Positions 3,102 to 19,923 of a DNA stretch of 64,000 nucleotides are shown here, one piece after another. Position 1 is the first letter of the stretch, and every line of letters starts with the position of its first letter. Source of the DNA: a virus (Duplodnaviria > Caudoviricetes); IMG/VR virus record IMGVR_UViG_3300021978_000001, positions 320,001 to 384,000 of that record; one strand, given 5' to 3'. The notes beneath the pieces are model-generated. The model was given only the letters and a program-made list of their open reading frames with translations. It made no database searches and was not told where the DNA came from. The translations under genes were made by a program, and so were the position numbers.

Positions 3102-3566
3102 ATGTTGCAACATCAATACGAGCAAGAGAAGCGCGCCATCGAGAACGGATACTGCTGCAACAAGGGTTGCACGGGTCGTTGGATTCTCTCGGACTTCGAT
3201 ACCTGGCACTCCTGCAATCACGGAAACCCTGGCCCCCACCCTCATGAGCTGGAAGCGCGCTTCGAGGCAGAAGAGTACGATAAGAACGTCGCACCCTGGC
3301 GCGAGCGCTTCAAGAAGGCAGGTACCCAGCTCATGAGGCTCGGGTTCACCTCGAAGCAGGTGGGAGAGTTCGCTCGCTCCCTGGATTCAGAGCAGCAGAC
3401 GAGGTTGCTCGAAAACTACCGCCAGACCTACCCCGAGATCTTTGCCGAACCGCTGCCCGTGTACATGACCTGGACGCCCATCATCCAGACTCTCTACATC
3501 GAAGAGATGGCGCGTGATGAAACGCTTCGCCTCTCCTGGACCCTGGATGATTTCTGGGCTCACTGA
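3102..3566 (+). CDS. Hypothetical protein, possible Cys/His metal site
   Basis: GAGGAG RBS; CCNKGC...WHSCNH. Confidence 0.75.
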   Translation: MLQHQYEQEKRAIENGYCCNKGCTGRWILSDFDTWHSCNHGNPGPHPHELEARFEAEEYDKNVAPWRERFKKAGTQLMRLGFTSKQVGEFARSLDSEQQTRLLENYRQTYPEIFAEPLPVYMTWTPIIQTLYIEEMARDETLRLSWTLDDFWAH

Positions 3567-3588: not shown

Positions 3589-3618
3589 GAAACCCCTCGC
3601 CCAAAAGCGAGGGGTTTC
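3589..3618. terminator. Bidirectional terminator between convergent genes
   Basis: Perfect 12-bp stem gaaacccctcgc/gcgaggggtttc with 6-nt loop. Confidence 0.75.
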
Positions 3619-3630
3619 TCGCGTCTGGGG

Positions 3631-3981
3631 TCACACGAACCCGAGGTGCGCGAAGACAGAGACCTTCTCGGTCTCCCCCGTCTCAGGGTTCACGCGCTCC
3701 TGCGACTGGCGCAGGCTGAACGCGTAGACGGGTGTCACGCCTATGGAGAGCAACGCCTCGTGCAAGGGATGCATCAGGAAGGGGGCACCACCGAGCATGG
3801 CGCTCTCGTGGCCCACAGCGAGCTGTGCGAGCGCTTCGGCGCGCTCACGAACCTCATCAGAGGTAGGAAGCTCGGTGAAGGACAGCAACGCCTGGACTGC
3901 TGACTTGTCGGAAGGCTCCACGACACCGGCGTCACGCTGCGCGGCGCTGGTGGGGTGTTGGGTGAGATTCAAGGTCGTCAT
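3631..3981 (-). CDS. Small protein resembling the Csx20/Csx15-type CRISPR accessory ring nucleases
   Basis: CAGGAG RBS; N-terminal LNLTQHP..A.Q..AGVV, central F.ELP...EV..RA, AMLGG..F, C-terminal R.S.E...G..EK.SVF.H.GF. The ORF is solid; the family call is by-eye pattern similarity. Confidence 0.5.
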   Translation of the reverse strand: MTTLNLTQHPTSAAQRDAGVVEPSDKSAVQALLSFTELPTSDEVRERAEALAQLAVGHESAMLGGAPFLMHPLHEALLSIGVTPVYAFSLRQSQERVNPETGETEKVSVFAHLGFV

Positions 3982-4071
3982 ATTCTACTCCTGTACACAT
4001 CGACGCTGGCCAATCCAACGTCGTTCATATGGCAGGAGAGATGTGCGTTGCGCGGCGCTGACACTTCACAC

Positions 4072-4108
4072 AAAAAAGCCCTCGATGTTTCACACACCGA
4101 GGGCTTTT
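4072..4108 (-). terminator. Intrinsic terminator of 4131-4832
   Basis: 11-bp stem aaaagccctcg/cgagggctttt with a U-run on the minus strand. Confidence 0.7.
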
Positions 4109-4130: not shown

Positions 4131-4832
4131 TTAGAAGCCTGCGTGCGCCTCGATGAGAGGCAAGAGGGCGCTGCGGAACTCGGGGCGTGCGAACGCGAGA
4201 CGGATCAATGCCTCACCGAGCTTGAGGTTGCGCTTCTTGGCGTAGTTCTTCGCGATGTCGGAGATCGAAGGCTTCTTGCTCGGGTTGGCGGGAGGATGCT
4301 TGACGTACATCTTGAGCGCCTTGTCGAACTCCTTGCTCATCAGGGCGTTGACCTCATCCTTGTCGATCAGCTCGTCGCGTGTCTTGTCCTTCTTGACCTC
4401 GCGCCAGAACGTCATCTTGTCCTTGTCCGAGGGCTTCTTGTATTTCTTCTGGAGCTGTTGCAGTTCCTTCCCGGAATCATCCTTGTCCGAAGAGCTGTCA
4501 CCACCATCACCCTTCCACTTGTCGAAGAGCTTCTGGAAGAATCCCTTGCCCTCATCCGTGCTCGGGAGCGACTTGATCTTGACCTCATCCGAGCGACCCT
4601 TCGGGTTGGGGTTCTTGACCTTCTGATCACCCACTTCTTCGAGGAACTTCTTGACATCCTTGCCACCCTTGTCCGCGCGCTTGAGCCAGGTGTAAGGCTC
4701 GACGTAAGCGCGGCGGTGTTGAAGCTGCGCGTGCGCTTGACGGATGTCGTCTTCGATCAGGGGCATCAAGTGGGGTCGCAGCTCGCGATGGGTAAAGGCG
4801 AGCTTGATGGTTTCATCACGGAGCGTGCTCAT
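4131..4832 (-). CDS. Lys/Asp-rich protein with two LIRLAF..PE.R..L.PLIE-type motifs
   Basis: AAGGAAGAG RBS before ATG at 4832; motif at both ends (TIKLAFTHRELRPHLMPLIE; LIRLAFARPEFRSALLPLIE). Confidence 0.85.
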   Translation of the reverse strand: MSTLRDETIKLAFTHRELRPHLMPLIEDDIRQAHAQLQHRRAYVEPYTWLKRADKGGKDVKKFLEEVGDQKVKNPNPKGRSDEVKIKSLPSTDEGKGFFQKLFDKWKGDGGDSSSDKDDSGKELQQLQKKYKKPSDKDKMTFWREVKKDKTRDELIDKDEVNALMSKEFDKALKMYVKHPPANPSKKPSISDIAKNYAKKRNLKLGEALIRLAFARPEFRSALLPLIEAHAGF

Positions 4833-4912
4833 GGTTTCTCTTCCTTGGGTGAGTAGGTGGACACACATACACCATCTGTGAGCTACAAACACATTATGCA
4901 ACGCGAGACCTC

Positions 4913-5533: not shown

Positions 5534-5875
5534 ATGAAGTTCAACTTGAAAAGAGCGTGTAGCGAGTGTCCGTTTCGCAAAGAGAACGGTTACCTCGAAC
5601 GTGGGCGCGCGCGTGAGATCGCGCATGCGTTGCAAAACGATGGCAGCTTTACCTGTCACAAGACCCTCGACTACACGAGCGGCAAGCCAGGAGAGACCCA
5701 GAAGAGCGCGTTCTGCGCGGGCGCCCTGAGCGTCATGGAGAACGAAGGTTCGACGTTCGCGAACGTGCTCATCCGCCTCGCCGCGATGGGCATGGGGTAC
5801 GACCCTGACGCCTTGCTCGATCGAGAGGAGTGCTTCGAGAGCATGGAAGCCTTCATCCTCGGGCATGGGAGTTGA
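5534..5875 (+). CDS. Cys-rich small protein of a type common in phages, probably metal-binding
   Basis: CSECPF...FTCHKT...FCAGA pattern. Confidence 0.75.
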   Translation: MKFNLKRACSECPFRKENGYLERGRAREIAHALQNDGSFTCHKTLDYTSGKPGETQKSAFCAGALSVMENEGSTFANVLIRLAAMGMGYDPDALLDREECFESMEAFILGHGS

Positions 5876-5877
5876 GT

Positions 5878-6864
5878 ATGCAAGACAACGAACGCTTTGG
5901 TGAGGTGCGGAGTGCGTTCGCGCAGCGACCTCGGGATGAGGAAGAGGCATTGAGGCAGTGGGAGCTATATTGCGAGCATTGTCTCGGTGATCACGAGCCC
6001 ACGCATATAAGCCAGTACATCATGGATTGTCTCTTTCACTCGGAGAAGACCTCTCTTTTCCACCGAGAGACGCCCCTGTCTGGGTGGGCTCACGAGTTGG
6101 GTATCCGTCTCGGGTATGCGGAAGGACGTTTTGACGCGTGCGTACCCATCCCAGGCCGTCTACCCCGACAGAAACACGCGCATGCTGTTTGCCTCGCTGA
6201 ACGCTTTTTGCAGGCGGTCGCGGTGGCTGCCTGTCATCTTACCTGGCGCCAAAAGTCGAGGGTGCGCGCTTATCCCCCTTACTTCTTTTATCGCGTCCTC
6301 TTGCCTGGGTGGGAGTTTGGTTTCGGTCGCGAGATGCTGGAGGTGTTGCCCGTTCAACCCCCGCGTCGCAGCTACAGGGGTGTGGATTGGCCAAGGGGCA
6401 TGCCCGTCTTGCAGACCGATCAATACTATAGCCAGTTTCTCTCGCGCGCCTTTCTTGCGTCACAGCGCGCGCAACTGAACCTCAACCTGGACCCCCTCGG
6501 TGAACTCTTCCAACGTTTGTGCGCGGATCTAGGGATGTTGCTGTATCTCGTGGGGATCAACCCCACCCGCATCGAGAAGCTGTATGGTGATCTGATTTAC
6601 CTCGCACAAGAAGTGGCCTTTCGCTATGCGGACCCAGGTAGCATCTTCAAAACTTTCTACTACCCACATGAGGAGGTCGAGCAGACGCAGGAGCTAAACG
6701 CTCCCGCCCATAACCGGGAACCTCAACACAGAATCCTCCCCGAGTATGAACCCAACCTTCGCATGTGGGAGTACGCGGTCAATCCTTTCGAGATGCAGAA
6801 GATCTTCGACGAGACGCTCGAAGACTTTGGCAGCTCAGAGCTTTGGGGAAGGATGCTGATTTAA
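5878..6864 (+). CDS. Hypothetical protein, FG[ED]VRS family
   Basis: MQDNERFGEVRSAFAQRP...RQWE; start re-chosen at 5878. Confidence 0.75.
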   Translation: MQDNERFGEVRSAFAQRPRDEEEALRQWELYCEHCLGDHEPTHISQYIMDCLFHSEKTSLFHRETPLSGWAHELGIRLGYAEGRFDACVPIPGRLPRQKHAHAVCLAERFLQAVAVAACHLTWRQKSRVRAYPPYFFYRVLLPGWEFGFGREMLEVLPVQPPRRSYRGVDWPRGMPVLQTDQYYSQFLSRAFLASQRAQLNLNLDPLGELFQRLCADLGMLLYLVGINPTRIEKLYGDLIYLAQEVAFRYADPGSIFKTFYYPHEEVEQTQELNAPAHNREPQHRILPEYEPNLRMWEYAVNPFEMQKIFDETLEDFGSSELWGRMLI

Positions 6865-7760
6865 AGGTACAGCTCGGGGTGCCACCTTGGATTGAGAGGT
6901 TCTTCATGTTGGGTCATGGGACGTGGGGTGTTGAGCCCGAGGTCGTATAGACGACGTGCCAGCTCATCCTGGGAGATGCTTTTCTCATCGCCGTCCTCAT
7001 ACACGAAGAGAACGTCGGGAGGATAGAAGCCGGAGATGATCACCTTTTCGCCGTCAAACCTCGTGGGCTCGTGTGAGAGCCACGCGCCATCATGAGAAAA
7101 CCTGTCATCGTGATAATTCCAGGTACCCTTCCAGGGGAGATCGAGCCCCATGCTGTGCAAGATGGAGAGGAAACCACGCTTGCGCTTGTCGCGTGGGTTG
7201 TGGGACTGTTCATCGAACCGTGCATGCGAGCATGTGTAGGACGGGAACACGCTTGTCCAGCCCATGTGTAGGGTCCAGGCGCCCTGGACAGTCTTGATCT
7301 GGGCATGCATCCTCTCGCCTGTGGGAGCACTCAGGGTTCGGCCATGGCGGATGAAGTCGGAGATCCATGCCGCGCCCTTGATGTGCTCTCTAAGGAACGT
7401 GACAGGCATTCTATGTCCTATGCCCGTGATGGCCCGGCGATAAAGGCAGTGGCAGATGTAATCATGCACCGGCCCTTCCATGGGAAACTCCGCAGAGACA
7501 GGCACGTTCAAGATGTGATAGCGTGTGTGGTCGTCTAACACCTCGTTATACCAGATGTCCTTGCTCAAGATCTGCCTCGCAGACGTCACCCACCCGAGCA
7601 AGTGCCAGGCTTGGTGTTTTGTAATCGTCCGCATGATCTCCTGTTGCGCGACCTGAGCCTGGTCGGGAGACATTTCTCCCGTGAGGAGCCATAGCCTGCG
7701 CACGTTATCCCCATACCAGAAGCGCGCCATCATGCTGCGCCATTCGCCTGTCCCAAACAT
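6861..7760 (-). CDS. Hypothetical protein, weak FGEVRS-like start
   Basis: Strong AAAGGAGG RBS and its own minus-strand promoter; starts MFGTGEWRSMM. Confidence 0.8.
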   Translation of the reverse strand: MFGTGEWRSMMARFWYGDNVRRLWLLTGEMSPDQAQVAQQEIMRTITKHQAWHLLGWVTSARQILSKDIWYNEVLDDHTRYHILNVPVSAEFPMEGPVHDYICHCLYRRAITGIGHRMPVTFLREHIKGAAWISDFIRHGRTLSAPTGERMHAQIKTVQGAWTLHMGWTSVFPSYTCSHARFDEQSHNPRDKRKRGFLSILHSMGLDLPWKGTWNYHDDRFSHDGAWLSHEPTRFDGEKVIISGFYPPDVLFVYEDGDEKSISQDELARRLYDLGLNTPRPMTQHEEPLNPRWHPELYL

Positions 7761-7785
7761 CACTTCCTCCTTTTGTGCTTCACCT

Positions 7786-7815
7786 CTCGTACCACATCTA
7801 CAGGGTATCCGTCAA
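7786..7815 (-). promoter_or_regulatory. Conserved promoter class
   Basis: Minus strand TTGACG-N18-TACGAG with TGTGG. Confidence 0.7.
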
Positions 7816-7882
7816 GTCTTCTCGAACGCTTTACGGAGTTTTCACGTAAAGAGAAAGGAAGGCCATGTTGTGAGGTAAGGCA

Positions 7883-8923
7883 ATGATTCAAAACTTGAAC
7901 TTCGGAGATGTCCGCTCGTTGATGGCGGGGCCTCCACGAAATCCAGATCACGCAGAGCAACAATGGGAAGTGCTGCTTTATTTGATGCGCCATCCCGAGC
8001 GAGAAACCAACGGAGACATCGCCAACATGCGTATGTATGTTGAGGGACGCGCGTCGAGGATCAGCTCTGAGTGTCGAACCCTGGAAGACTGGGCAACGCT
8101 TCTGGTGAACCAGGGATTGTCTCTTGGAGCTGCGCTGTATCAGAGCTGGCGCTACACACCGCGCGAGCGTTACCTGACCTTCGAGATGGCCGATCACAAT
8201 CCGGCGCGCATCGAAAACTACCTGGAGCCTCCCCGGGATTTCAAGCTGCTCGCCACGCTCGATAGGCGCACGGTCGATCAGCAAGCCATCGGCGCGGCCT
8301 TGCGGAGCGCGATCTTCGATCAGCTCTACCTGTATGCGCGTGAGCAGAAGTGGGAGGAGCGCCACCGCCGCCTCTCCAAATACCCTGGGAGCGACGAAGA
8401 ACGCGCGAGCCAGCGAAAGGTCATCGAGGCGCAGGCGCTAAGGATGCACCAGCTCGTCTGGATCATGACTCGGATCACGTATCGCACCGAGGTCAACAGG
8501 CAGACCCACATCGAACACCTCACCTATCCGTTTCATGCGTCTGATGTGCTCGGGTCGCAGACTGCTGCTCGATCGGACTATCTGCGGGTCGTCAAGAACC
8601 AGATCGAGAAGTCCTGGTATCAGCACAATACCTTGGTGAATCAAGATGCGTCCCGGTACCTCTATGACACGACCCTGGACGCTGGCGAGGACGTACCGAA
8701 CTACGGGCACCTCTCGGGGCAAATGCTCCTGGCTTGCGTGCTGGCAGATATATGGCCTGTGATCCGGGATGATTGGATGGTAAGCATGGCGAAGGGACTG
8801 CCTCCTATCGAGGCATTGGATGCGCATTACGTGCAGCATGAAGCGCTGATCACGCAAGCCCTTGAGCGCTTCTACAACAACAAGCCAGGCGAGGAAGACC
8901 TCGACCTGGACATCGAATGGTAA
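7883..8923 (+). CDS. Hypothetical protein, FG[ED]VRS family
   Basis: MIQNLNFGDVRSLMAGPP...QQWE. Confidence 0.8.
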   Translation: MIQNLNFGDVRSLMAGPPRNPDHAEQQWEVLLYLMRHPERETNGDIANMRMYVEGRASRISSECRTLEDWATLLVNQGLSLGAALYQSWRYTPRERYLTFEMADHNPARIENYLEPPRDFKLLATLDRRTVDQQAIGAALRSAIFDQLYLYAREQKWEERHRRLSKYPGSDEERASQRKVIEAQALRMHQLVWIMTRITYRTEVNRQTHIEHLTYPFHASDVLGSQTAARSDYLRVVKNQIEKSWYQHNTLVNQDASRYLYDTTLDAGEDVPNYGHLSGQMLLACVLADIWPVIRDDWMVSMAKGLPPIEALDAHYVQHEALITQALERFYNNKPGEEDLDLDIEW

Positions 8924-8933
8924 AGGTGATCGT

Positions 8934-10091
8934 ATGACAGATCCAACAAACAATCCTGTGCAACCGCCCGCCAACGAACAAGAGACTCGCGAGAAGTGGG
9001 TGGCTCTGATGACACGCCTCACGCAAGATCACGTGAGGCCCTATTCGGAAGGCATGTACTCCCAACTCGAACCCGAGAGCTGGGTCAAGGCTGCGCTCAG
9101 TCACGGTATGTCTCCGGGCTTCGCGTTTATGGTGGCATGGGTCAAGTTTAAACCCGTGATCACGAGCGACATCCTCGACCCTCTCTTCGCGTGTGAAGGA
9201 CCTCTCGACGGACGCGTGATACGCGAGATGCTCGTGCGCGAGATGCACCAGGCATTGCATCGCAGGATGTACGTTGTCGAGGACATGCAGGAAGCGCTCG
9301 CAATCGCGAATCTCACATGCAAGCTCGCAGGTGTCGATGTCCCTGCGGACCCGGAGGTGAACTTCGCACCGTATTTCGAGGAGGAATACAAGACATGGCC
9401 GCGCGAAGTCTTCAAGGAGATCAGTGCGTTTGTCCAGCGAAGCATCCCCGCACCTGTCGAGGAACCTGCCTACGGGCAAATGGGCGCCCTGTTTCTCCAG
9501 GCGAACGGGAGCCGGGTGAGCTTTCAGAATGCAATTTCGTCGATGCCTGAAGGTGTGCAGGGTCCTCTCCTCGAAGCCTGGGATCATTGGGTCGCACACC
9601 AGGCGGCGCGGAAAGAGATGGAGCGCCAGCCTCGCTACGCTGAAGAACCCCCTGTGTTCGAGCCGGAGAACAAGGCGCTCGTGATGGAACAAAACATCAC
9701 GCACGACTGGTGCCTTGCCAAGGTCGAGCACGCCCTCGTCGAAGGGTTCGAGTCAGCGCGCATCGAACATTCCTCTACCGATTGGATCGACACGCTACCT
9801 TCGAGCGCAGAACAGGAGTGGGACGTGGCTGCGCTTCTGGGAGAAGCCTTTATGATGCCAGCGGTCAGCTTCTTGTGGGAAACATTTACAGCAGCTTTCA
9901 TGCAAAACATCCTGGCGCGTGTGTCGTTCGAGGAAGCGATCCCGGCGCTGGACTTCGACGGCGCGCTCCAGTGTCTCTATAATCAACTGGCTGTCTTGAA
10001 CGCCTCAGAACTGGAGCCCCAGTCTAAGGTGGGGACCTACGGGGAGTACATCACGACGCTCACCGAGCTTTGGGAAGGGACACAGGTATGA
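8934..10091 (+). CDS. Hypothetical helical acidic protein
   Basis: Long ORF; AAGGTG RBS before ATG at 8934. Confidence 0.8.
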   Translation: MTDPTNNPVQPPANEQETREKWVALMTRLTQDHVRPYSEGMYSQLEPESWVKAALSHGMSPGFAFMVAWVKFKPVITSDILDPLFACEGPLDGRVIREMLVREMHQALHRRMYVVEDMQEALAIANLTCKLAGVDVPADPEVNFAPYFEEEYKTWPREVFKEISAFVQRSIPAPVEEPAYGQMGALFLQANGSRVSFQNAISSMPEGVQGPLLEAWDHWVAHQAARKEMERQPRYAEEPPVFEPENKALVMEQNITHDWCLAKVEHALVEGFESARIEHSSTDWIDTLPSSAEQEWDVAALLGEAFMMPAVSFLWETFTAAFMQNILARVSFEEAIPALDFDGALQCLYNQLAVLNASELEPQSKVGTYGEYITTLTELWEGTQV

Positions 10092-10645
10092 TCGAAGAGC
10101 ATCGCGAACTCCTGGAGCGCCTGATCACGCATGTGTCAGAGCACCCTGTCGGGGAGCACAAGATCCCGATCACGGGGACGCTCCCTGTGACCCGGAGCGC
10201 TTTCGTGCCTCTATCCGAAACAGATAGGTATGACACGGACAGGGCAGCGCGCGCGTCCCTGGCGCATTTGCTCTACGCGTATGTCGCGACCTTGCCTCAA
10301 GACCTCGATGAGCAACGCCACCGGGCAATCTATACGCTCGCGGCCTTGTTGCATCCGATCACAGGGACAGGTGCGCTCGACTCCTTGCCTCCCCGACGCA
10401 TTCAGCTCGACGCTAACATCGAGGCGCTCGATGCTCTCCCGCATGCGAAGACCTCGGTCGCGTGGCGAAACACAGCCGAGATCGTCGAGAGCATGCGCAG
10501 GCATTACAGCGAGGAGGATTTCGACCCACGCTACGTGTACGCCCTGGCGCACGCGTTCGACGCCGCCTACCAAAAGCCCTCGCGTGATCTCCTGGAGCTG
10601 GCACAATATCGCTATATGCAACGTTGTGACCCAGGACGTACTTGA
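10088..10645 (+). CDS. Hypothetical protein
   Basis: ATGA overlap with the previous stop. Confidence 0.75.
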   Translation: MIEEHRELLERLITHVSEHPVGEHKIPITGTLPVTRSAFVPLSETDRYDTDRAARASLAHLLYAYVATLPQDLDEQRHRAIYTLAALLHPITGTGALDSLPPRRIQLDANIEALDALPHAKTSVAWRNTAEIVESMRRHYSEEDFDPRYVYALAHAFDAAYQKPSRDLLELAQYRYMQRCDPGRT

Positions 10646-10671
10646 CACGCTGTCCTACCTTGTGGTAACAC
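10642..10671 (+). promoter_or_regulatory. Conserved promoter class
   Basis: TTGACA-N18-TAACAC with TGTGG; the -35 overlaps the TGA of 10088-10645. Confidence 0.75.
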
Positions 10672-10711
10672 AACCTCTGTTGAACTGAACCATGACAGAG
10701 GTGTGTTACCA
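10663..10711 (+). promoter_or_regulatory. Inverted repeat spanning the -10 box to the RBS/start codon
   Basis: tggtaacac(a)acctctgt / acagaggt gtgttacca: 17 bp with a 1-nt bulge and 14-nt loop. Confidence 0.7.
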
Positions 10712-10896
10712 TGTCCGAACTTCCATCTACATTCTTTGGGAATGACATCGAAACCGATGGCGTCTTCGTGATACTTCGCCGTCTGGTTCTTCCGGTGTCG
10801 GAAACTACCAAGGAAGAGCGTGACGCAGGTAAAATCGAGATCGTCGAGCATTACGTCGGTGCGGTTCGTAAGGCGTTTCAGACCGCTGGCTTGTGA
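10711..10896 (+). CDS. Small hypothetical protein
   Basis: GAGGT RBS; downstream of promoter. Confidence 0.65.
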   Translation: MSELPSTFFGNDIETDGVFVILRRLVLPVSETTKEERDAGKIEIVEHYVGAVRKAFQTAGL

Positions 10897-10911
10897 CGAA
10901 GGGGCTGACTC

Positions 10912-11229
10912 ATGGGACGTTTGCATCCCGATGTCGAGGTCGATGGGGTTTATGTCACCCTCACGAACCTGACACGTATGGGCATGGGGCCTGTGACCCT
11001 GTGCATTCCAGGTGGAAAGCCTCCAATCCTCAACATTGATTATTGGGATGGCCCCTGCATGCTCCTGTATCCTTTCCCCGATACACGAACGGTCTACGTG
11101 TACGGGCTGCCCGAAATCGACGAAGAGGGCAACCCCTATAGCAAAGAAGAACTAGACGCGGCGTGCGAGAAATACGCTTACGCTGTGCGTATCGCAATTC
11201 AAGAAGCCGGGCTTTGGCGGCGCGGCTAA
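10912..11229 (+). CDS. Hypothetical protein
   Basis: AAGGGG RBS; tiles with neighbours. Confidence 0.7.
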   Translation: MGRLHPDVEVDGVYVTLTNLTRMGMGPVTLCIPGGKPPILNIDYWDGPCMLLYPFPDTRTVYVYGLPEIDEEGNPYSKEELDAACEKYAYAVRIAIQEAGLWRRG

Positions 11230-11258
11230 ACAAAACCCTGGATACAAGAGAGAACCTT

Positions 11259-11873
11259 ATGCATCTGGCACATATCAAGAAAGCACTCGAAGAGGGCACC
11301 ACGGTCGGCATCCTCCACTGCATTCGCTTCAGCAACCTCGAACGCCCCGAGCATGACCTCCCCACGGACCCCCTCGTCTTGACCTGGCCCTGTCCCGCCA
11401 AGATCAAGGAGATCAACCCGTGCCTCAAGCTCGAACCCACGCACCACGATGGAATCTATCAGTATTACAACATCGTCGAGACCGAGGAACCTCAATCGGG
11501 ATGGCATCTTGTCGAGATGCCATGTTGGGTAGACCTCGACGGTCAGCTCGTGACGTCCGAGGTGATCGCTCCCTCGAAAGATATTCGAGAATGGACCTTC
11601 GAGTATGCTTCAAAATGGGAGCGCAAGCATGACATGTTGCTCGACCGCCTCACGAATCATGCGAAGCGCGCGAACGCCAAGGTGCTCGAAGCTGAACTCG
11701 AAGCCTACGAGGAGGAAAACGCGGACGCGATCGAGGCGATGGGCGAGCATTTCTTCGAGGGAGCGGATACCGTGATCGACAAGGGTACGCTCGCGCACCT
11801 GTTGTCTCTGGTCCACGCGGACGCGACGCGGTTTGCACGATTGACCCTGGGTGAGGTATTGTGGAAACCCTGA
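11259..11873 (+). CDS. Hypothetical protein
   Basis: ATG at 11259 after AAGAGAG. Confidence 0.75.
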   Translation: MHLAHIKKALEEGTTVGILHCIRFSNLERPEHDLPTDPLVLTWPCPAKIKEINPCLKLEPTHHDGIYQYYNIVETEEPQSGWHLVEMPCWVDLDGQLVTSEVIAPSKDIREWTFEYASKWERKHDMLLDRLTNHAKRANAKVLEAELEAYEEENADAIEAMGEHFFEGADTVIDKGTLAHLLSLVHADATRFARLTLGEVLWKP

Positions 11874-11913
11874 ACGGTACAGACATCACGAAGACGAAGA
11901 AAGGAAGACGACC

Positions 11914-12972
11914 ATGACTCGACTGATTTCCACTGCCAATGTCCGCAACGCTGTCCTCGATCTCCTGTACAGCGAGCGTTCGACACGTATCCCGAAGTTC
12001 ACGTTCCGCTCGCAGCAGACCTTGCCTCCAGGTAAGCGCTCGAACAACGACCCGAAGTACGTGATCCTCGTGTTCGAGGAGCCGTCCACGCGGACGCACA
12101 AGAGCTTCGAGGTCGCGGCGCGCGCCGAAGGGTGTGAAGTCCTTTCGGTCGGAGGCGGCAGCTCTCTCCTCAAGGGTGAGAGCATGATCGACACCATCGA
12201 GAACCTCATCTCCATTGTGGGCTCCTCGAACGTGGTGGCGGTCGTGACGCGCACCAGGCTCAGGGAGGACCGAACAGAACTCTTGACAAGGTTGGGGATG
12301 TTCTACCCGCAAATTTTTTTCATCAACGCAGGCGATTCAGATGGCCATCACCCGACCCAGGCGCTCGGGGATGCGCTCGCGCTCGCGCGTGCATGGGATG
12401 AGCAGGGAACCCGGACCCGTGAGGAGATCTTTGCGGGTAAGGTCGTGACCCTCATCGGGGATGTGGAAGCCTCCAGGGTCGCGCGCAGCGTTTACGAGCT
12501 GTTCACGCGCCTCGGAATCACGGTCGCCTTCGGTCAAGTCGCCAAGCAAGACATCCGGGGCACCTTCCCAGGTGCCAGGATCTTTGAAACCCGTGATGAA
12601 GCCCTGGAGCAGAGTGACGCGATCATGTGTTTGCGCTACCAGGCCAACCGGATGCGTCCGGGCACGTCCGAGCTGACCGAGGAACTCATGTTTCCTCAGT
12701 GGCGTATCCACGCGCGCGACCTCGAAGACTCTCCCGACCTCTTGCTCATGCACCCTGGCCCCGTGATGTGGGCGGATCGACCCTCACAAGACCTGATGAT
12801 TATGGAACAGGGGCAGGGTTATCGCGACGGTTGGCTTTCTCATGACTTGCGTGATCATGACCAGTGCATCGTACTCGATCAAGCGCGCGCCTGTGCTGAT
12901 GTCCGGCGTATGCTGCTTGCCATGTGCCACCCCAACCACGCATACAACACGCTCATTCAGGCTTGGGGCTGA
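11914..12972 (+). CDS. pyrB: Aspartate carbamoyltransferase catalytic subunit (divergent)
   Basis: FEEPSTRTHKSFE, SSLLKGESMIDT, INAGD...HPTQAL, GD...SRVARS, RYQ, HPGP: ATCase-type rather than OTCase-type motifs. Confidence 0.9.
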   Translation: MTRLISTANVRNAVLDLLYSERSTRIPKFTFRSQQTLPPGKRSNNDPKYVILVFEEPSTRTHKSFEVAARAEGCEVLSVGGGSSLLKGESMIDTIENLISIVGSSNVVAVVTRTRLREDRTELLTRLGMFYPQIFFINAGDSDGHHPTQALGDALALARAWDEQGTRTREEIFAGKVVTLIGDVEASRVARSVYELFTRLGITVAFGQVAKQDIRGTFPGARIFETRDEALEQSDAIMCLRYQANRMRPGTSELTEELMFPQWRIHARDLEDSPDLLLMHPGPVMWADRPSQDLMIMEQGQGYRDGWLSHDLRDHDQCIVLDQARACADVRRMLLAMCHPNHAYNTLIQAWG

Positions 12973-12981
12973 AAGATTCTC

Positions 12982-13010
12982 TTTACGCCGGGCTTCTGGT
13001 AGGGTATACA
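12982..13010 (+). promoter_or_regulatory. Conserved promoter class (TAGGG variant)
   Basis: TTTACG-N17-TATACA. Confidence 0.7.
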
Positions 13011-13047
13011 CAGAAGTGTACCACGAATGCGACCAGGAGAAGAGGGA

Positions 13048-13581
13048 ATGGGAAGTATGTACGATCAGAGTGAACGGTTTTGCTTGAGCGGCGAGGGCGA
13101 GGAACATCACCACGCCTTCGCCGCGTTGCGGAGCGCCCTGCACCATACAAAAGAAGTCCCGGCTTACACGGTCGAGAACACACCCGCGTGGCTTCGAGGG
13201 CGCTTGACCAAGACAAAGCGCATGCGAGAGCTGGAAGAGTGGCTTCACTGCTATAAGATCGAAGACCCCGAGACCCTGAGCTACATCTTCGCACAGGTGA
13301 GCGCCGAAGAGTTGCTCTCGGTCGTGACCTGGACAGATGAAAGTGATGGCTTGATGACAGGTCGTGCGTATGAGAACGCGCTCAAGTATAGCCTCGATGG
13401 TGTGTTCACGTTACGGCTCGGGGCTACTGTGCTCGCGTCCTTTCCTGCGGTTGAATGGCATCGTATGCTCACGCAAGCGCGCTCGGAAACCTCGGCTCTT
13501 CCTCCCTACCTCGATGGGTACCCCTTGCGAGAGGTCGCGATGATGGTGCTCGAACGCGAGACACGAGAGAAGGTCGCATGA
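13048..13581 (+). CDS. Hypothetical protein, weak FGEVRS-like motif
   Basis: HAFAALRSALH; purine-rich RBS. Confidence 0.7.
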   Translation: MGSMYDQSERFCLSGEGEEHHHAFAALRSALHHTKEVPAYTVENTPAWLRGRLTKTKRMRELEEWLHCYKIEDPETLSYIFAQVSAEELLSVVTWTDESDGLMTGRAYENALKYSLDGVFTLRLGATVLASFPAVEWHRMLTQARSETSALPPYLDGYPLREVAMMVLERETREKVA

Positions 13582-14474
13582 CAGAAGGTCAAAGCAACAG
13601 CGTGGACTTCGGGGAGGTTCGGAGCGCGGTACATACGCCGTATGACCCTGATGACGAAGGTCTCGACCCCTTGTTCGAGGCCCTGACCCTTCCTCGTACC
13701 TCGTGCACGTGGAACACCTTTCCCCATTGGGACTACATCTACCGTTCGGTCTCGTGGGACCGCCTGTGTCAAGCCTTGCGCTGGACGTATCAGACGCGCG
13801 AGGAGGCTCAGGTCACGCGCGAGGAGGCTCAGGTCACGCGCGAGGAGGCTCAGGTCACGCACTCGGACAGCTTCGGGACATGGTTCAAGTGGGTCGAGTA
13901 CGTTTTGATGGTCGAACCCATGAAGTATCGACACACAGACCCGGACGGGTTCCTCGCGTTGCGCCTCGGTTCCTTCGTGCTGGAGGTGACCTCACCGCTC
14001 GGGCTCCACCATAGGTGGATCGACCACATGTTCTCGCGCGCTGAATGGGAGTTCTCGTTGCGCCTGTTCACCAAAGGTGGGGCAGACTCGAAAGAGTTTG
14101 CCGGACTCGTGGGTGAGATCAAGCGCGCGTACTTCAAGGCTTACCGCTCCAAGCTGCATGGAGATCGCTACTTCCACGTGAACGTGCATCGCATGCGAAA
14201 TCGCCTGGAGATGTTGCGAGACTTTACCCAGGAGCGCTTCGACAAGAACGCTTATGGCCGCGCGACCTTTCTGTTCGAGGCGTGCATGGAAGCGCTCGAT
14301 TGTCTTGACGGTGACCCCAGACCCCACCTCAAGCGCCCGAACATCCGCAATAACCTCGAAGCCTTTACCCACATCTACACCATGGCCCACAAGGGAGTCC
14401 GCGAGCTTCGCCTCAAGCAAGAGATCGAGATGAAAGGGTATGCGTTGCAGGGAGACACCTTGCGCAAGACTTGA
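13578..14474 (+). CDS. Hypothetical protein, FG[ED]VRS family, with a TREEAQV x3 repeat
   Basis: ATGA overlap; VDFGEVRSAVH. Confidence 0.8.
   Translation: MTEGQSNSVDFGEVRSAVHTPYDPDDEGLDPLFEALTLPRTSCTWNTFPHWDYIYRSVSWDRLCQALRWTYQTREEAQVTREEAQVTREEAQVTHSDSFGTWFKWVEYVLMVEPMKYRHTDPDGFLALRLGSFVLEVTSPLGLHHRWIDHMFSRAEWEFSLRLFTKGGADSKEFAGLVGEIKRAYFKAYRSKLHGDRYFHVNVHRMRNRLEMLRDFTQERFDKNAYGRATFLFEACMEALDCLDGDPRPHLKRPNIRNNLEAFTHIYTMAHKGVRELRLKQEIEMKGYALQGDTLRKT
13794..13860 (+). repeat. 21-nt tandem repeat x3 (in frame)
   Basis: acgcgcgaggaggctcaggtc x3 plus acgc. Confidence 0.95.
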
Positions 14475-14509
14475 GTTTCTCGCTTGAGTTTCTCGCTTGA
14501 GTTTCTCGC
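14471..14509 (+). repeat. 13-nt tandem repeat x3 at a stop codon/promoter junction
   Basis: ttgagtttctcgc x3, immediately followed by the TTGACG -35 box. Confidence 0.95.
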
Positions 14510-14539
14510 TTGACGCAAGGCTTGGCTTTGTGGTACCAA
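14510..14539 (+). promoter_or_regulatory. Conserved promoter class
   Basis: TTGACG-N18-TACCAA with TGTGG. Confidence 0.7.
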
Positions 14540-14590
14540 GGCTCAGACGCACACGAACGATCGAGATAACACGTACTCAAGGAGAGTGAG

Positions 14591-15145
14591 ATGAGCGTAG
14601 TGACGGACGTGGATACCCTGAGCACCTGGAGCTTTACCAAGCTCGCGACCCTGTTCCATAGGCAACGGCGAAACTTCGACATGAATCGAGAGCGGTACCT
14701 CGAACTGGACCCGGATGCTACCTGGGAGAAGGCTGGTGGGGAGGTCGAAGAGTTATCTGAGAATGCCCGGGGCTTCCAGCAACACGAGATCCTCTTGTTT
14801 CAAGGGAACACCTGGTACGCGTGGCTCGAACGCCACAGGGGTGAGATCGCCGCGCCTTCCGAAGATACCCTCGAAGAAAGCAGGCGCGGGAATGGGGGGC
14901 CGTTGATCGCGATGTTCCTCGCGAAGTTCATGCAAGTGCTGTTGGATGAACACGGGCCAGAGGCCGATCTGGAGGATCAGGAGGATGTGGAGGCTTTGTA
15001 TGTCTGGATCGGTCTGCACATGATCCCTGTACCTCCCGAGTACGCAGGCGGTGATTGGGCGCTGATCTCGGGCGAGCAGATCTTTCGGTTCAACTTCGGT
15101 GGTCTCGTTTCGAGACCTTCGGATGACAGCGAAGGCGAGGCATGA
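14591..15145 (+). CDS. Hypothetical acidic protein
   Basis: AAGGAG RBS. Confidence 0.8.
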   Translation: MSVVTDVDTLSTWSFTKLATLFHRQRRNFDMNRERYLELDPDATWEKAGGEVEELSENARGFQQHEILLFQGNTWYAWLERHRGEIAAPSEDTLEESRRGNGGPLIAMFLAKFMQVLLDEHGPEADLEDQEDVEALYVWIGLHMIPVPPEYAGGDWALISGEQIFRFNFGGLVSRPSDDSEGEA

Positions 15146-15702
15146 GCTTCGAGCATTTCACGACAGGGTTGAACTCGATCTCCTGGGGAGATCTGCGCGC
15201 CATGGTCCACAGCGAAGCCCGGGGATCAGAAGATGCCTTGCTCAAGCTCCCTGGCTTTAGCTTGAGCAAGGAGCAGTTCCACTACGTGTTCGCCAACGTC
15301 ACCATCGAAAGGCTCACGGGGTTCTTGAAGTGGCAGTATCAGGACGGTACCTCCTTGTGTGATCTGCCTTTCGATGGGCAACTGTATACGGACGTGAGCC
15401 TCGTGTGGGGGAACAACCGCGTACTGCGCTTTGACAATGTGGTCCCGGTCTATCTCATGTGCCATGACGCGACGCGGCAACCCCACAAGAGGTTCCAGGG
15501 CCTCCAGGACATGCGTGAGACGCTCGCCAGGTCCGAGGAGGACCCCCAGGGTGCCACTCGGCTGGTGACGTTTATCTCCTATGTCCACCTGGCCTCTCTT
15601 ATCCTCCCCGGGGTCGATCAGCTTCGCCAAGCAACGCGCGAAGTCTTGCGCCTGTGGGCTGCGGATAACGAGGTCTCTTTCCGTGTGTGTGATCATGAGT
15701 GA
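15142..15702 (+). CDS. Hypothetical protein, FGEVRS-like variant
   Basis: ATGA overlap; SWGDLRAMVH. Confidence 0.75.
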   Translation: MSFEHFTTGLNSISWGDLRAMVHSEARGSEDALLKLPGFSLSKEQFHYVFANVTIERLTGFLKWQYQDGTSLCDLPFDGQLYTDVSLVWGNNRVLRFDNVVPVYLMCHDATRQPHKRFQGLQDMRETLARSEEDPQGATRLVTFISYVHLASLILPGVDQLRQATREVLRLWAADNEVSFRVCDHE

Positions 15703-16312
15703 TGTGTTGGATCGTAGCACTGTGTTGGATCGTATCTCGTACTGGCACCCCCTGGACGTGGACTTCGAGGCTTACGTCCAGGAGAACATGATGTGGGTCT
15801 CTACCGAGGATGACAAGGGGCAGTGTGTCTGGCTCGACCGCTTCGAGTACCCGACCCTCACGCATCGTTCCCTTGACGAGTATGCGGAGCGCGTCGATCA
15901 AAGCATGTGGGAGTTGTGGGTACAGCTTACCGAGCCTGACCTCTTCAATCATGAGTGCGTGAGGTTTATCCTCGATATTGGTCCAAGGGATGCGGTGGGA
16001 TACGAGAAGACCCTGTACCTGGCGCCACGTGCTGCCCCTTTGGGAGATCCCACGCTCATCAAGCGCCTGGACTTTACACGCTGGAAGCGCGTGATCTGGC
16101 AATACTGGGACGTGGTGATGGAAGGTCGTGATTGGGACAAGCGCATCTTGAAGGCGTGGTACTCGCTCTGCTTCACGAGTCCCAAGGTCGTGTCCGTTGA
16201 CCTGGCTTACATCCTGGAGTACCCCGAGGAGCAGGAGGGGTATTGTGATGCCCAGGCGCAGTCGTGGGGTGACCTGAGTTGGGCACGCGCGCCATACCAA
16301 CGGCGCGCCTGA
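15695..16312 (+). CDS. Hypothetical protein
   Basis: Overlapping ATG at 15695; duplicated VLDRS/VLDRI near the start. Confidence 0.75.
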   Translation: MSDVLDRSTVLDRISYWHPLDVDFEAYVQENMMWVSTEDDKGQCVWLDRFEYPTLTHRSLDEYAERVDQSMWELWVQLTEPDLFNHECVRFILDIGPRDAVGYEKTLYLAPRAAPLGDPTLIKRLDFTRWKRVIWQYWDVVMEGRDWDKRILKAWYSLCFTSPKVVSVDLAYILEYPEEQEGYCDAQAQSWGDLSWARAPYQRRA

Positions 16313-18283: not shown

Positions 18284-18313
18284 TTTACAGCCAGGGACGT
18301 TCTGTGGTACACG
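18284..18313 (+). promoter_or_regulatory. Conserved promoter class
   Basis: TTTACA-N18-TACACG with TGTGG. Confidence 0.7.
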
Positions 18314-18368
18314 TGATGTAGCTTGTATGGGGCATGGCTTGTATGGGACGCCTGTAGGAGGTACGAGT

Positions 18369-19136
18369 ATGAAGATCCATGCGGATACGAAGATCCATGC
18401 GGACTTTGAAGAGGCATGCATGCACGTGGTCAAGCGTATGCGTGGCAGTGAAGAAGAGAGGTACTCTCAAGGGGGCACGCGTCGAGGCCAGGAGATGGCC
18501 GCAGGGGATTGGCGTCTTCGACCCTGGACGCCATTAGCAGGAACGAAAGGACTCCTGATGAACACGCTTGTCCTGTCCCATGCGACAACGAATCATTCTG
18601 GTATTCAATCCCATGGTATCTCTCAATACCGCGTGATGGGAACGCCTATCAGTCTGGTGAATGGTCGAGACGCGTACTGGGTCGATTGGTACATCGACGT
18701 GAACCTGACTCTTCACCCCTCGAATCTTCCGGGCTATCTCGACACGCGACATGTGAGCGAGTTCCTGGGGGTCGAATACTTCGAGGACAGATGGAACGGG
18801 TGGGCCTATGCGTTGGATGCACCGATGGCGTGGTATGCGGAGGTCTCGGACAAGCGTGCATTGTTCATCTGGGGAGGATACGACGGTCAAGGGTATGACG
18901 AGGGTGTCAAGCGTTACATCGAGGAGATGTTCTCAGGAGTGGTATTGGAAGGACCGAGGACACGGGTACCTTTGAGCGACTCTGTAGACCTCGTGTTGTA
19001 CGCGCACCCTGACATTTTACCGTCGTTGCATGTTCGACCGTCGTTGACGAGTGCAGGGGATACCGAGCGTATCCTGAGTGCCTTGCGACGTGGGAGAGAG
19101 TTGCAAGAGCTTTTGGTGAGAATCACCGCATCGTGA
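18369..19136 (+). CDS. Family A paralogue (subfamily A1)
   Basis: GGAGG RBS; FIWGGYDGQGY; LYAHPDILPSL; ALRRGRELQELL. Confidence 0.8.
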   Translation: MKIHADTKIHADFEEACMHVVKRMRGSEEERYSQGGTRRGQEMAAGDWRLRPWTPLAGTKGLLMNTLVLSHATTNHSGIQSHGISQYRVMGTPISLVNGRDAYWVDWYIDVNLTLHPSNLPGYLDTRHVSEFLGVEYFEDRWNGWAYALDAPMAWYAEVSDKRALFIWGGYDGQGYDEGVKRYIEEMFSGVVLEGPRTRVPLSDSVDLVLYAHPDILPSLHVRPSLTSAGDTERILSALRRGRELQELLVRITAS

Positions 19137-19149
19137 GAATCACCGCATC
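19116..19149 (+). repeat. 17-nt tandem duplication across a stop codon
   Basis: gtgagaatcaccgcatc x2. Confidence 0.9.
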
Positions 19150-19170
19150 TATCAAGACAGGGAGAAAGGC

Positions 19171-19923
19171 ATGAGCAAGATATACAGGAACCGAAGAGAG
19201 ATGATCGAGGGGCACCTCGAAGGCTTCCCTGTGGAGGGAGGTAGAAGAGGATGGGAGAGCCCGGATGGGGTCAAGTACCTTGGCTGCGCGTGTGAGCTAT
19301 CGTTCTGGTCGGGTAAGCTCGACGAGGGGGTCTTTCAAGCCTCGGGTGAGGTCGCATTGTTTGGTCATGAGGTCAAGGCGCGTCGTCCTCTCTTGAACAG
19401 TGAGGTCAAAGGAGAGGAGGCAAGGGTCTTCTGGGTCGATGGCCGTTACCAGCCTCGACAGAGGGGCGCTCCTGAGCGTCGAACGAAGTATGGTCGTGAG
19501 GTCCGTGATCAGGGCATTGTGGGAAACTTCGAGGAGATGCGTGAGGTATCGAACGTGTTCGATCCCCATATCGTCATGGAGAGCTTGTGGAACGAGCCTG
19601 TGATGTGGCGAGAGGAGACGCGTCAGGGGGAATGTGTCTTCGTGTATCAGGGCTCGAACTACCCGCAATGGAGCGAGGAGGTCCTGGAACTCGCGCGCGA
19701 GCATGGAGCGGTCGATAACCGTGGGAAGACGCTCGAAATCACCTTGAGCGAGACGTATCCCGGGATCAAGCTCAGGGTGTACAACCACCCCGACATCTTG
19801 CCAGGTCTCCAGCTCCAGGCGTGGAGTAGGAGTGATGCATGCACGCTTGAGATCGAGAAGGTCCTGTGGCGAGGAAAAGCGCTTCAAGAGGCTTTTGCTC
19901 AGATGTTGAGCGAGGAGACATGA
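19171..19923 (+). CDS. Family A paralogue (A1)
   Basis: VYNHPDILPGL; VLWRGKALQEAF. Confidence 0.8.
   Translation: MSKIYRNRREMIEGHLEGFPVEGGRRGWESPDGVKYLGCACELSFWSGKLDEGVFQASGEVALFGHEVKARRPLLNSEVKGEEARVFWVDGRYQPRQRGAPERRTKYGREVRDQGIVGNFEEMREVSNVFDPHIVMESLWNEPVMWREETRQGECVFVYQGSNYPQWSEEVLELAREHGAVDNRGKTLEITLSETYPGIKLRVYNHPDILPGLQLQAWSRSDACTLEIEKVLWRGKALQEAFAQMLSEET

Follow-up and report, generated by a model that had tools for sequence, protein, structure and literature searches.

CRISPR-linked Csx20 has been reported to act in vitro as a ring nuclease that degrades cyclic tetra-adenylate (cA4) and, at high enzyme concentration, cyclic tri-adenylate (cA3) as well (Hoikkala et al., PMC12409355), and Csx20 homologues have been found in four phage genomes of the Millard collection (PMC12409355). 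In a second study, csx20-aca14 anti-CRISPR (acr) operons under the control of the ribbon-helix-helix (RHH) regulator Aca14 have been described in a Pasteurella multocida prophage and in phage Pm86, and the authors suggest that a cas gene has been co-opted there for counter-defence (bioRxiv 10.64898/2026.07.27.740549). Viral ring nucleases of other families are also known, namely AcrIII-1 and AcrIII-2, the latter being described in a preprint as a viral SAVED ring nuclease that degrades cA4 (bioRxiv 10.1101/2025.07.01.662501). Here we describe a gene for a Csx20/MJ1673-family (PF27247) protein, a candidate viral ring nuclease of 116 amino acids plus stop codon, at positions 3631-3981 on the minus strand of the window, by which we mean the whole stretch of 64,000 nucleotides that was analysed, corresponding to bases 320001-384000 of the 437,490-bp IMG/VR virus record IMGVR_UViG_3300021978_000001, which has direct terminal repeats. 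A previous sequence-only reading had presented this gene as a possible second viral ring-nuclease family, a claim of novelty that is out of date now that phage Csx20 homologues and AcrIII-2 have been described. What the present analysis adds is the size and largely viral composition of a sister clade of Csx20 that annotation cut-offs have missed, the occurrence of this clade inside type III-B operons and in tandem and fused forms, and, in the phage studied here, a conserved leader hairpin over the ribosome-binding site.

The open reading frame and its translation contain each of the motifs from which a likeness to Csx20 had been read, namely LNLTQHPTSAAQRDAGVV, FTELPTSDEVRERA, AMLGG and GVTPVYAFSLRQSQE...KVSVF. 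The sole NCBIfam match of the protein is CAS_Csx20 (NF040559), at 19.7 bits (E 8.7e-4; 19.1 bits at the genome level) and over the C-terminal 41 residues only, which taken alone would be weak evidence, and the protein falls below the equivalog threshold of this model, a cut-off of at least 70 bits for the whole protein. The same scan at E<=10 returned no Csx15 or Csx16 match, the presence of Csx15 and Csx16 models in the library being unconfirmed, while profile scans against Pfam and PHROGs gave no usable match, PF27247 not being among the Pfam models scanned. A word-indexed search recovered 24 homologues with 39-63% identity, all of them annotated as PF27247, a family with the name 'MJ1673'. 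CAS_Csx20 is matched by each of these 24 at E<=1 (best E 1.2e-9), and some relatives span model positions 2-121 of 124. A precomputed PF27247 match is carried by all homologues listed, including P0002, which is 99% identical to the window protein.

For a direct comparison, an alignment of the family of the window protein (A1) was set against an alignment (A2) of 17 Csx20 proteins taken from those that pass the cut-off, a set drawn from a sample of 401 Bacillota genomes, 21 of which had such a protein. hhalign matched the two over 111 columns with a probability of 96.4% and an E value of 1.3e-9, pairing H9 of A1 with H6 of A2, and likewise Q15 with Q12, G65-A66 with G74-A75, Y86 with Y92, R91 with R97, F110 with F115, H112 with H117 and F115 with F120. 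Because the invariant residues of both sets are paired in this way, we regard the likeness of the protein to Csx20, at the level of sequence profiles, as genuine homology, and it extends across the whole domain of bona fide members of the PF27247 superfamily. The proposed likeness thus holds for Csx20, to which the single NCBIfam match, the profile alignment and the PF27247 homologues all point, whereas nothing was found in support of Csx15. Among the control genomes, only Methanocaldococcus jannaschii exceeded the Csx20 cut-off, as scored for the genome, and none of 301 sampled cyanobacterial genomes, a group poorly suited to this search, had a Csx20 above it.

The phage protein shares with classical Csx20 a size of approximately 120 amino acids, the same predicted order of secondary-structure elements and the motif order H..Q / G-A / Y-x-x-(S/T)-x-R / F-x-H-x-x-F, but two features of the classical proteins, a 'GDF' insert and a segment LP..L...WS.IPP, are missing from it. 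In an alignment of 271 unique domains, N5, T7, H9, Q15, G65, S/T89, R91, K106 and H112 are 91-99% conserved and all are present in the window protein, as are the superfamily motif residues H9, Q15, G65-A66, Y86, S89, R91, F110, H112 and F115, each of which is 86-99% conserved. Judged by these residues, the viral copies give no sign of having lost the site that they have in common with active Csx20.

When 1.84 billion representatives were searched exhaustively, 1,657 clusters were returned at E<=0.001 and 994 at E<=1e-10, so that the clade comprises at least 1,657 clusters when clustered at 50% identity. In IMG/VR, no more than two strict peptide patterns were enough to bring up 130 loci. The clade is very abundant in phages whose hosts span many phyla and is also present in metagenome-assembled genomes (MAGs) of Saccharibacteria; long contigs that bear a homologue are phage-like, with genes for DNA polymerase A, RecA, RusA, Thy1 and terminase, and are free of cas genes. 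Among cultured phages, tblastn found relatives only in Rhodothermus phage RM378 (p002, 39% identity) and Pasteurella phage Pm86, megablast with a 20-kb part of the window matched none of them, and a literature search for type III-B systems in Rhodothermus marinus, the host of RM378, found nothing. A quick maximum-likelihood tree places classical Csx20 in a single clade with a support of 100, and a long branch lies between this and a clade of 109 sequences to which the window protein, the viral contigs and the MAG loci belong. Within this second clade the window protein has a long terminal branch and takes no settled position. By sequence, the protein is a member of a large clade that is sister to classical Csx20 and mostly viral, and it differs from classical Csx20 in its score (19.7 bits against a cut-off of 70), in this separate long-branched position and in being carried by a phage without type III genes. 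Since the clade lies under the annotation cut-off for Csx20, it goes unnamed in genome records although it is very widespread in phages.

The phage gene has no type III CRISPR-Cas locus around it, in contrast to cellular relatives, which are found in such a context. In each of the five complete Bacillota genomes checked, 10-40 kb separate classical Csx20 from Cas10/Csm1. Within the sister clade, three Akkermansia MAG loci (38-46% identity) have the Csx20-like gene directly after a Csm6-family CARF gene, and in the only one of these that is fully annotated (L030) positions 6487-15768 hold a type III-B operon in which Cas1, the CARF gene (cas_NE0113, E 1e-43) and the Csx20-like gene are followed by Cas10/Cmr2-Cmr3-Cmr4-Cmr5-Cmr6-Cmr1. 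A gene of the same CARF family adjoins the Csx20-like gene in a Hyphomicrobiaceae MAG (48% identity). These operon-borne copies reach 30 bits, which like the phage protein places them under the NCBIfam cut-off, and they are nested among viral sequences in the tree. Besides L030, the loci listed for this context are L044, L045 and L028. In the Akkermansia copies a tyrosine replaces His112, a residue that is otherwise 94% conserved.

The predicted structure is in agreement with the profile comparison. AlphaFold2 (AF2) models of the window protein, built on A1, and of a bona fide Csx20 reached predicted local distance difference test (pLDDT) values of 94.7 and 88.3, respectively, and both have the element order strand, three helices, strand, helix and long C-terminal beta-hairpin. 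The best matches of the protein model in the ESM Atlas were PF27247 clusters that are 81-82% viral, with template modelling (TM) scores of 0.81-0.83, and the Csx20 model matched one of the same viral PF27247 clusters (TM 0.68) in addition to CRISPR-annotated PF27247 clusters. Foldseek, which had been proposed as a check, found no match of the model in the PDB at E<=0.001. Searches of the PDB by single sequence and by profile found nothing real, and the best VIA-align matches there were generic Rossmann-like domains, so that the fold was not identified by that route.

The homodimer, whose modelling had also been proposed, was predicted as symmetric, with a score of 0.78 (in runs with adenosine monophosphate, AMP), compared with 0.00 for the best of three controls. 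Among proteins of solved structure, 20 of 30 that pair a chain with itself attain a score of 0.78, and so does one of 23 that are single chains, counts that hold only roughly here since the dimer runs used a custom alignment and two riding AMP molecules. Contact agreement between runs was 100%, the pLDDT of the partner chain was at least 89, and the predicted interface takes in residues 63-71, which include the invariant GGAPFLM segment, and residues 84-90. On these models the protein would adopt a CARF-like alpha/beta fold with a five-stranded sheet and form a homodimer. Tandem two-domain proteins, or pseudo-dimers, account for 17 of the top 150 representatives of the clade, which fits the dimer as the working unit.

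The tandem forms (P0135-P0149, P0153, P0162, P0172 and P0216) in some cases have C-terminal extensions of 430-670 amino acids, and P0172 bears DUF4116 repeats. Heterogeneous N-terminal extensions are present in 31 of the top 150 representatives, one domain without assigned function being common to seven of them, and the N-terminal extensions of the fused forms are mostly without a Pfam family. In the Bacillota loci L066, L068 and L070, classical Csx20 makes up the C-terminal domain in longer open frames (578-607 amino acids); these fit the ESM Atlas clusters of approximately 700 amino acids that bear PF27248 (MJ1674_2nd) together with PF27247.

Based on these findings, we think it probable that the stand-alone protein, a predicted homodimer, is a cA4 ring nuclease that the phage uses as a counter-defence, that is as an anti-CRISPR. 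This is the best-supported reading of the gene, which we infer by analogy, and cA4 degradation is the likeliest function because it is what CRISPR-linked Csx20 carries out in vitro; no assay of any member of the viral clade was found in the literature searched. According to this proposal, a dimer of the CARF-like, Rossmann-derived protein of the Csx20/MJ1673 family would bind cA4 across its two-fold axis, in a pocket formed by the conserved NLTQH, GGAP(F/Y), YAFS.R.S.E and K..VF.H.GF motifs, and would cut it to linear products without a metal, as is the case for CRISPR-linked Csx20. Made by the phage at a suitable time in infection, and in a host that would have to carry a type III CRISPR-Cas system, the enzyme would clear the second messenger of that system and CARF and SAVED effectors would stay off. 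If active, the protein would thus silence type III signalling as an anti-CRISPR enzyme, analogous to AcrIII-1.

With AcrIII-1/Crn2 (DUF1874, PF08960) the phage protein would have its way of acting in common, namely the blunting of type III CRISPR through cA4 degradation by a small dimeric enzyme that needs no metal, whereas the family and fold of AcrIII-1 are unrelated to those of the phage protein, and the whole phage genome has no DUF1874 match at E<=1. According to the preprint, AcrIII-2 is likewise a virus-encoded cA4-degrading enzyme, as is proposed for the phage protein, but it uses a SAVED domain in place of the single CARF-like domain of the Csx20 type. No sequence similarity to Crn1 (Sso2081) or to the CARF domains of Csm6/Csx1 could be detected, and structural scores against them were not above those against unrelated Rossmann-like domains. 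The phage-borne csx20 homologues introduced above belong to the same family, are found in phage and have been given the same proposed role in counter-defence; the gene described here differs from them in its orphan neighbours, in the conserved leader hairpin over the Shine-Dalgarno sequence and in its 437-kb carrier phage.

A different main target would turn the enzyme, as a ring nuclease or a broader phosphodiesterase, against another signal, for example cA3 made by cyclic-oligonucleotide-based antiphage signalling systems (CBASS) or by type III systems with NucC-type effectors, so that it would counter CBASS-like defence instead of, or besides, type III CRISPR. The cA3 degradation by Csx20 at high concentration (PMC12409355) would be consistent with this, as would the abundance of the clade in phages of many host phyla, Saccharibacteria MAGs included, and the long branch from classical Csx20, along which specificity could have changed; in addition, a preprint has Csx15 bridging CRISPR and CBASS signalling (10.64898/2026.10.26.761840). 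However, the only cellular contexts found for the clade are type III-B operons beside Csm6-family CARF proteins, and a CBASS neighbourhood was seen at none of 122 loci in a search by recurrent neighbours only. We therefore consider another main target unlikely. A wider proposal gives the sister clade as a whole, with its tandem pseudo-dimers and fusions, the place of the most abundant virus-encoded ring-nuclease family, exceeding AcrIII-1 and maybe broadened to both cA3 and cA4, which would disarm type III CRISPR as well as CBASS-type signalling and is here carried by a giant phage with a type I-E system of its own; we put this forward tentatively and regard it as rather doubtful. The activity of clade members bears on how commonly phages use Csx20-type enzymes, on which signals are degraded and on the annotation of anti-defence genes in viromes, while for the gene at 3631-3981 itself the outcome is mainly a solid annotation and not a new principle.

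Cyclic-nucleotide sponges form an established class of phage proteins, and the ligand pocket predicted from fold and dimer would also suit a protein that binds a cyclic oligoadenylate tightly and does not cleave it. Such a role has been considered for Csx15 (PMC12409355). The window protein, however, keeps all of H9, S/T89, R91 and H112, which it has in common with catalytically active Csx20, and in the tree the viral members are mixed with those from CRISPR operons and have no separate motif set, which makes a sponge quite unlikely. A role outside immune signalling, for example that of a generic Rossmann-like domain acting in small-molecule or nucleotide metabolism, appears very unlikely to us, as the profile homology is specific to Csx20 and extends to no other family, and as both the proximity of classical Csx20 to Cas10 in five of five complete genomes and the clade members inside type III-B operons speak for a link to CRISPR signalling.

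The absence of cas context around the gene, which had been noted for the window, can in part be extended to the phage. A search of all 437 kb of the genome found neither Cas10/Csm1 nor RAMP genes, and no CRISPR-like array is present in the window, but a type I-E Cas7 gene (PF09344, E 7.5e-51; G000:C1) is located outside the window at genome positions 18289-19527 (minus strand), approximately 300 kb from the Csx20-like gene, so that by its gene content the phage has CRISPR-Cas genes of its own. The idea that the protein regulates a signalling defence or weapon system carried by the phage itself, to which this Cas7e gene could point, is close to refuted, since type I-E systems are not known to make cyclic oligoadenylate, the locus is some 300 kb off, and with no Cas10 or RAMP gene in the phage there is no type III system of its own for the Csx20-like gene to serve.

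The Csx20-like gene is present in one copy in the phage genome, and the same DNA as in the window was found in hydrothermal-vent and marine metagenomes, with contigs of a related marine strain being 90-95% alike to the phage DNA. Within the gene, this strain has at least 12 differences (at most about five more in that contig are without placement), and 10 of the 12 listed are synonymous while the remaining two jointly change one residue, I80V. As the differences in the gene are mostly synonymous, compared with 16 differences in the 64-nucleotide 3' spacer, the gene is under purifying selection.

The start codon is preceded by a Shine-Dalgarno sequence, AGGAG (3988-3992, minus strand), six nucleotides 5' of the ATG. 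The 90-nucleotide leader at 3982-4071 has a stable predicted fold (dG -37.6 kcal/mol, z -3.9), and its folding places the Shine-Dalgarno sequence in a hairpin, an inverted repeat in the DNA, at 3984-4041 (minus strand), where it is paired with CUCUCCU. In the related strain the core of this hairpin has one change in approximately 55 nucleotides, compared with six in the 31 nucleotides upstream. The leader hairpin may be a translational control element or gate, or else an operator-type inverted repeat.

The hairpins that had been reported on both sides of the gene are indeed present. Upstream, a 15-bp stem at 4072-4108 (minus strand; dG -24.7 kcal/mol, z -7.1) is followed by UUUUUUG and can, because of this U run, be assigned as an intrinsic terminator, that of the gene upstream at 4131-4901 (minus strand), which sets the Csx20-like gene apart as a unit of its own. 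Downstream, a GC-rich hairpin with a 13-bp stem lies at 3589-3618 between the convergent genes 3102-3566 (plus strand) and 3631-3981 (dG -27.3 kcal/mol, z -4.0) and is likely a two-way terminator; in the related strain a compensatory change at positions 3592/3615 converts an A-U to a G-C pair and the stem is kept (-28.9 compared with -27.3 kcal/mol). A consensus sigma-70 scan did not find a promoter near the Csx20-like gene. The sequence TGTGGTA occurs 23 times in the window where 3.8 copies are expected, for example at 2709, 4931, 5441, 7790 (minus strand), 10661, 21263 and 24082, and most copies stand 12 nucleotides past TTTACG or TTGACG and closely 5' of genes. The TTTACG-N12-TGTGGTA motif is likely the main promoter type of the phage, and it was not found upstream of the Csx20-like gene.

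Clustering of the neighbours of Csx20-like genes at 122 loci gave no partner gene in more than 10 of them, and therefore the gene moves as a solitary cassette. Two larger neighbour clusters were rejected as partners because they are antisense frames of the Csx20-like gene itself. In the phage, no RHH or Aca-like regulator gene was found adjoining the gene, and the ten nearest genes had no informative family except for a DnaJ-type zinc-finger fragment and one PHROG without assigned function. The product of the upstream gene 4131-4901, of up to 256 amino acids, has no family match; a similar motif (LAF..RxE.R..L.PLIE) is present at both of its ends, and its middle part is rich in Lys, Asp and Glu. 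On the plus strand, the gene 5534-5872 encodes a Cys-rich protein of 113 amino acids that matches phrog_5443 (E 3.5e-19) and, weakly, DUF6283.
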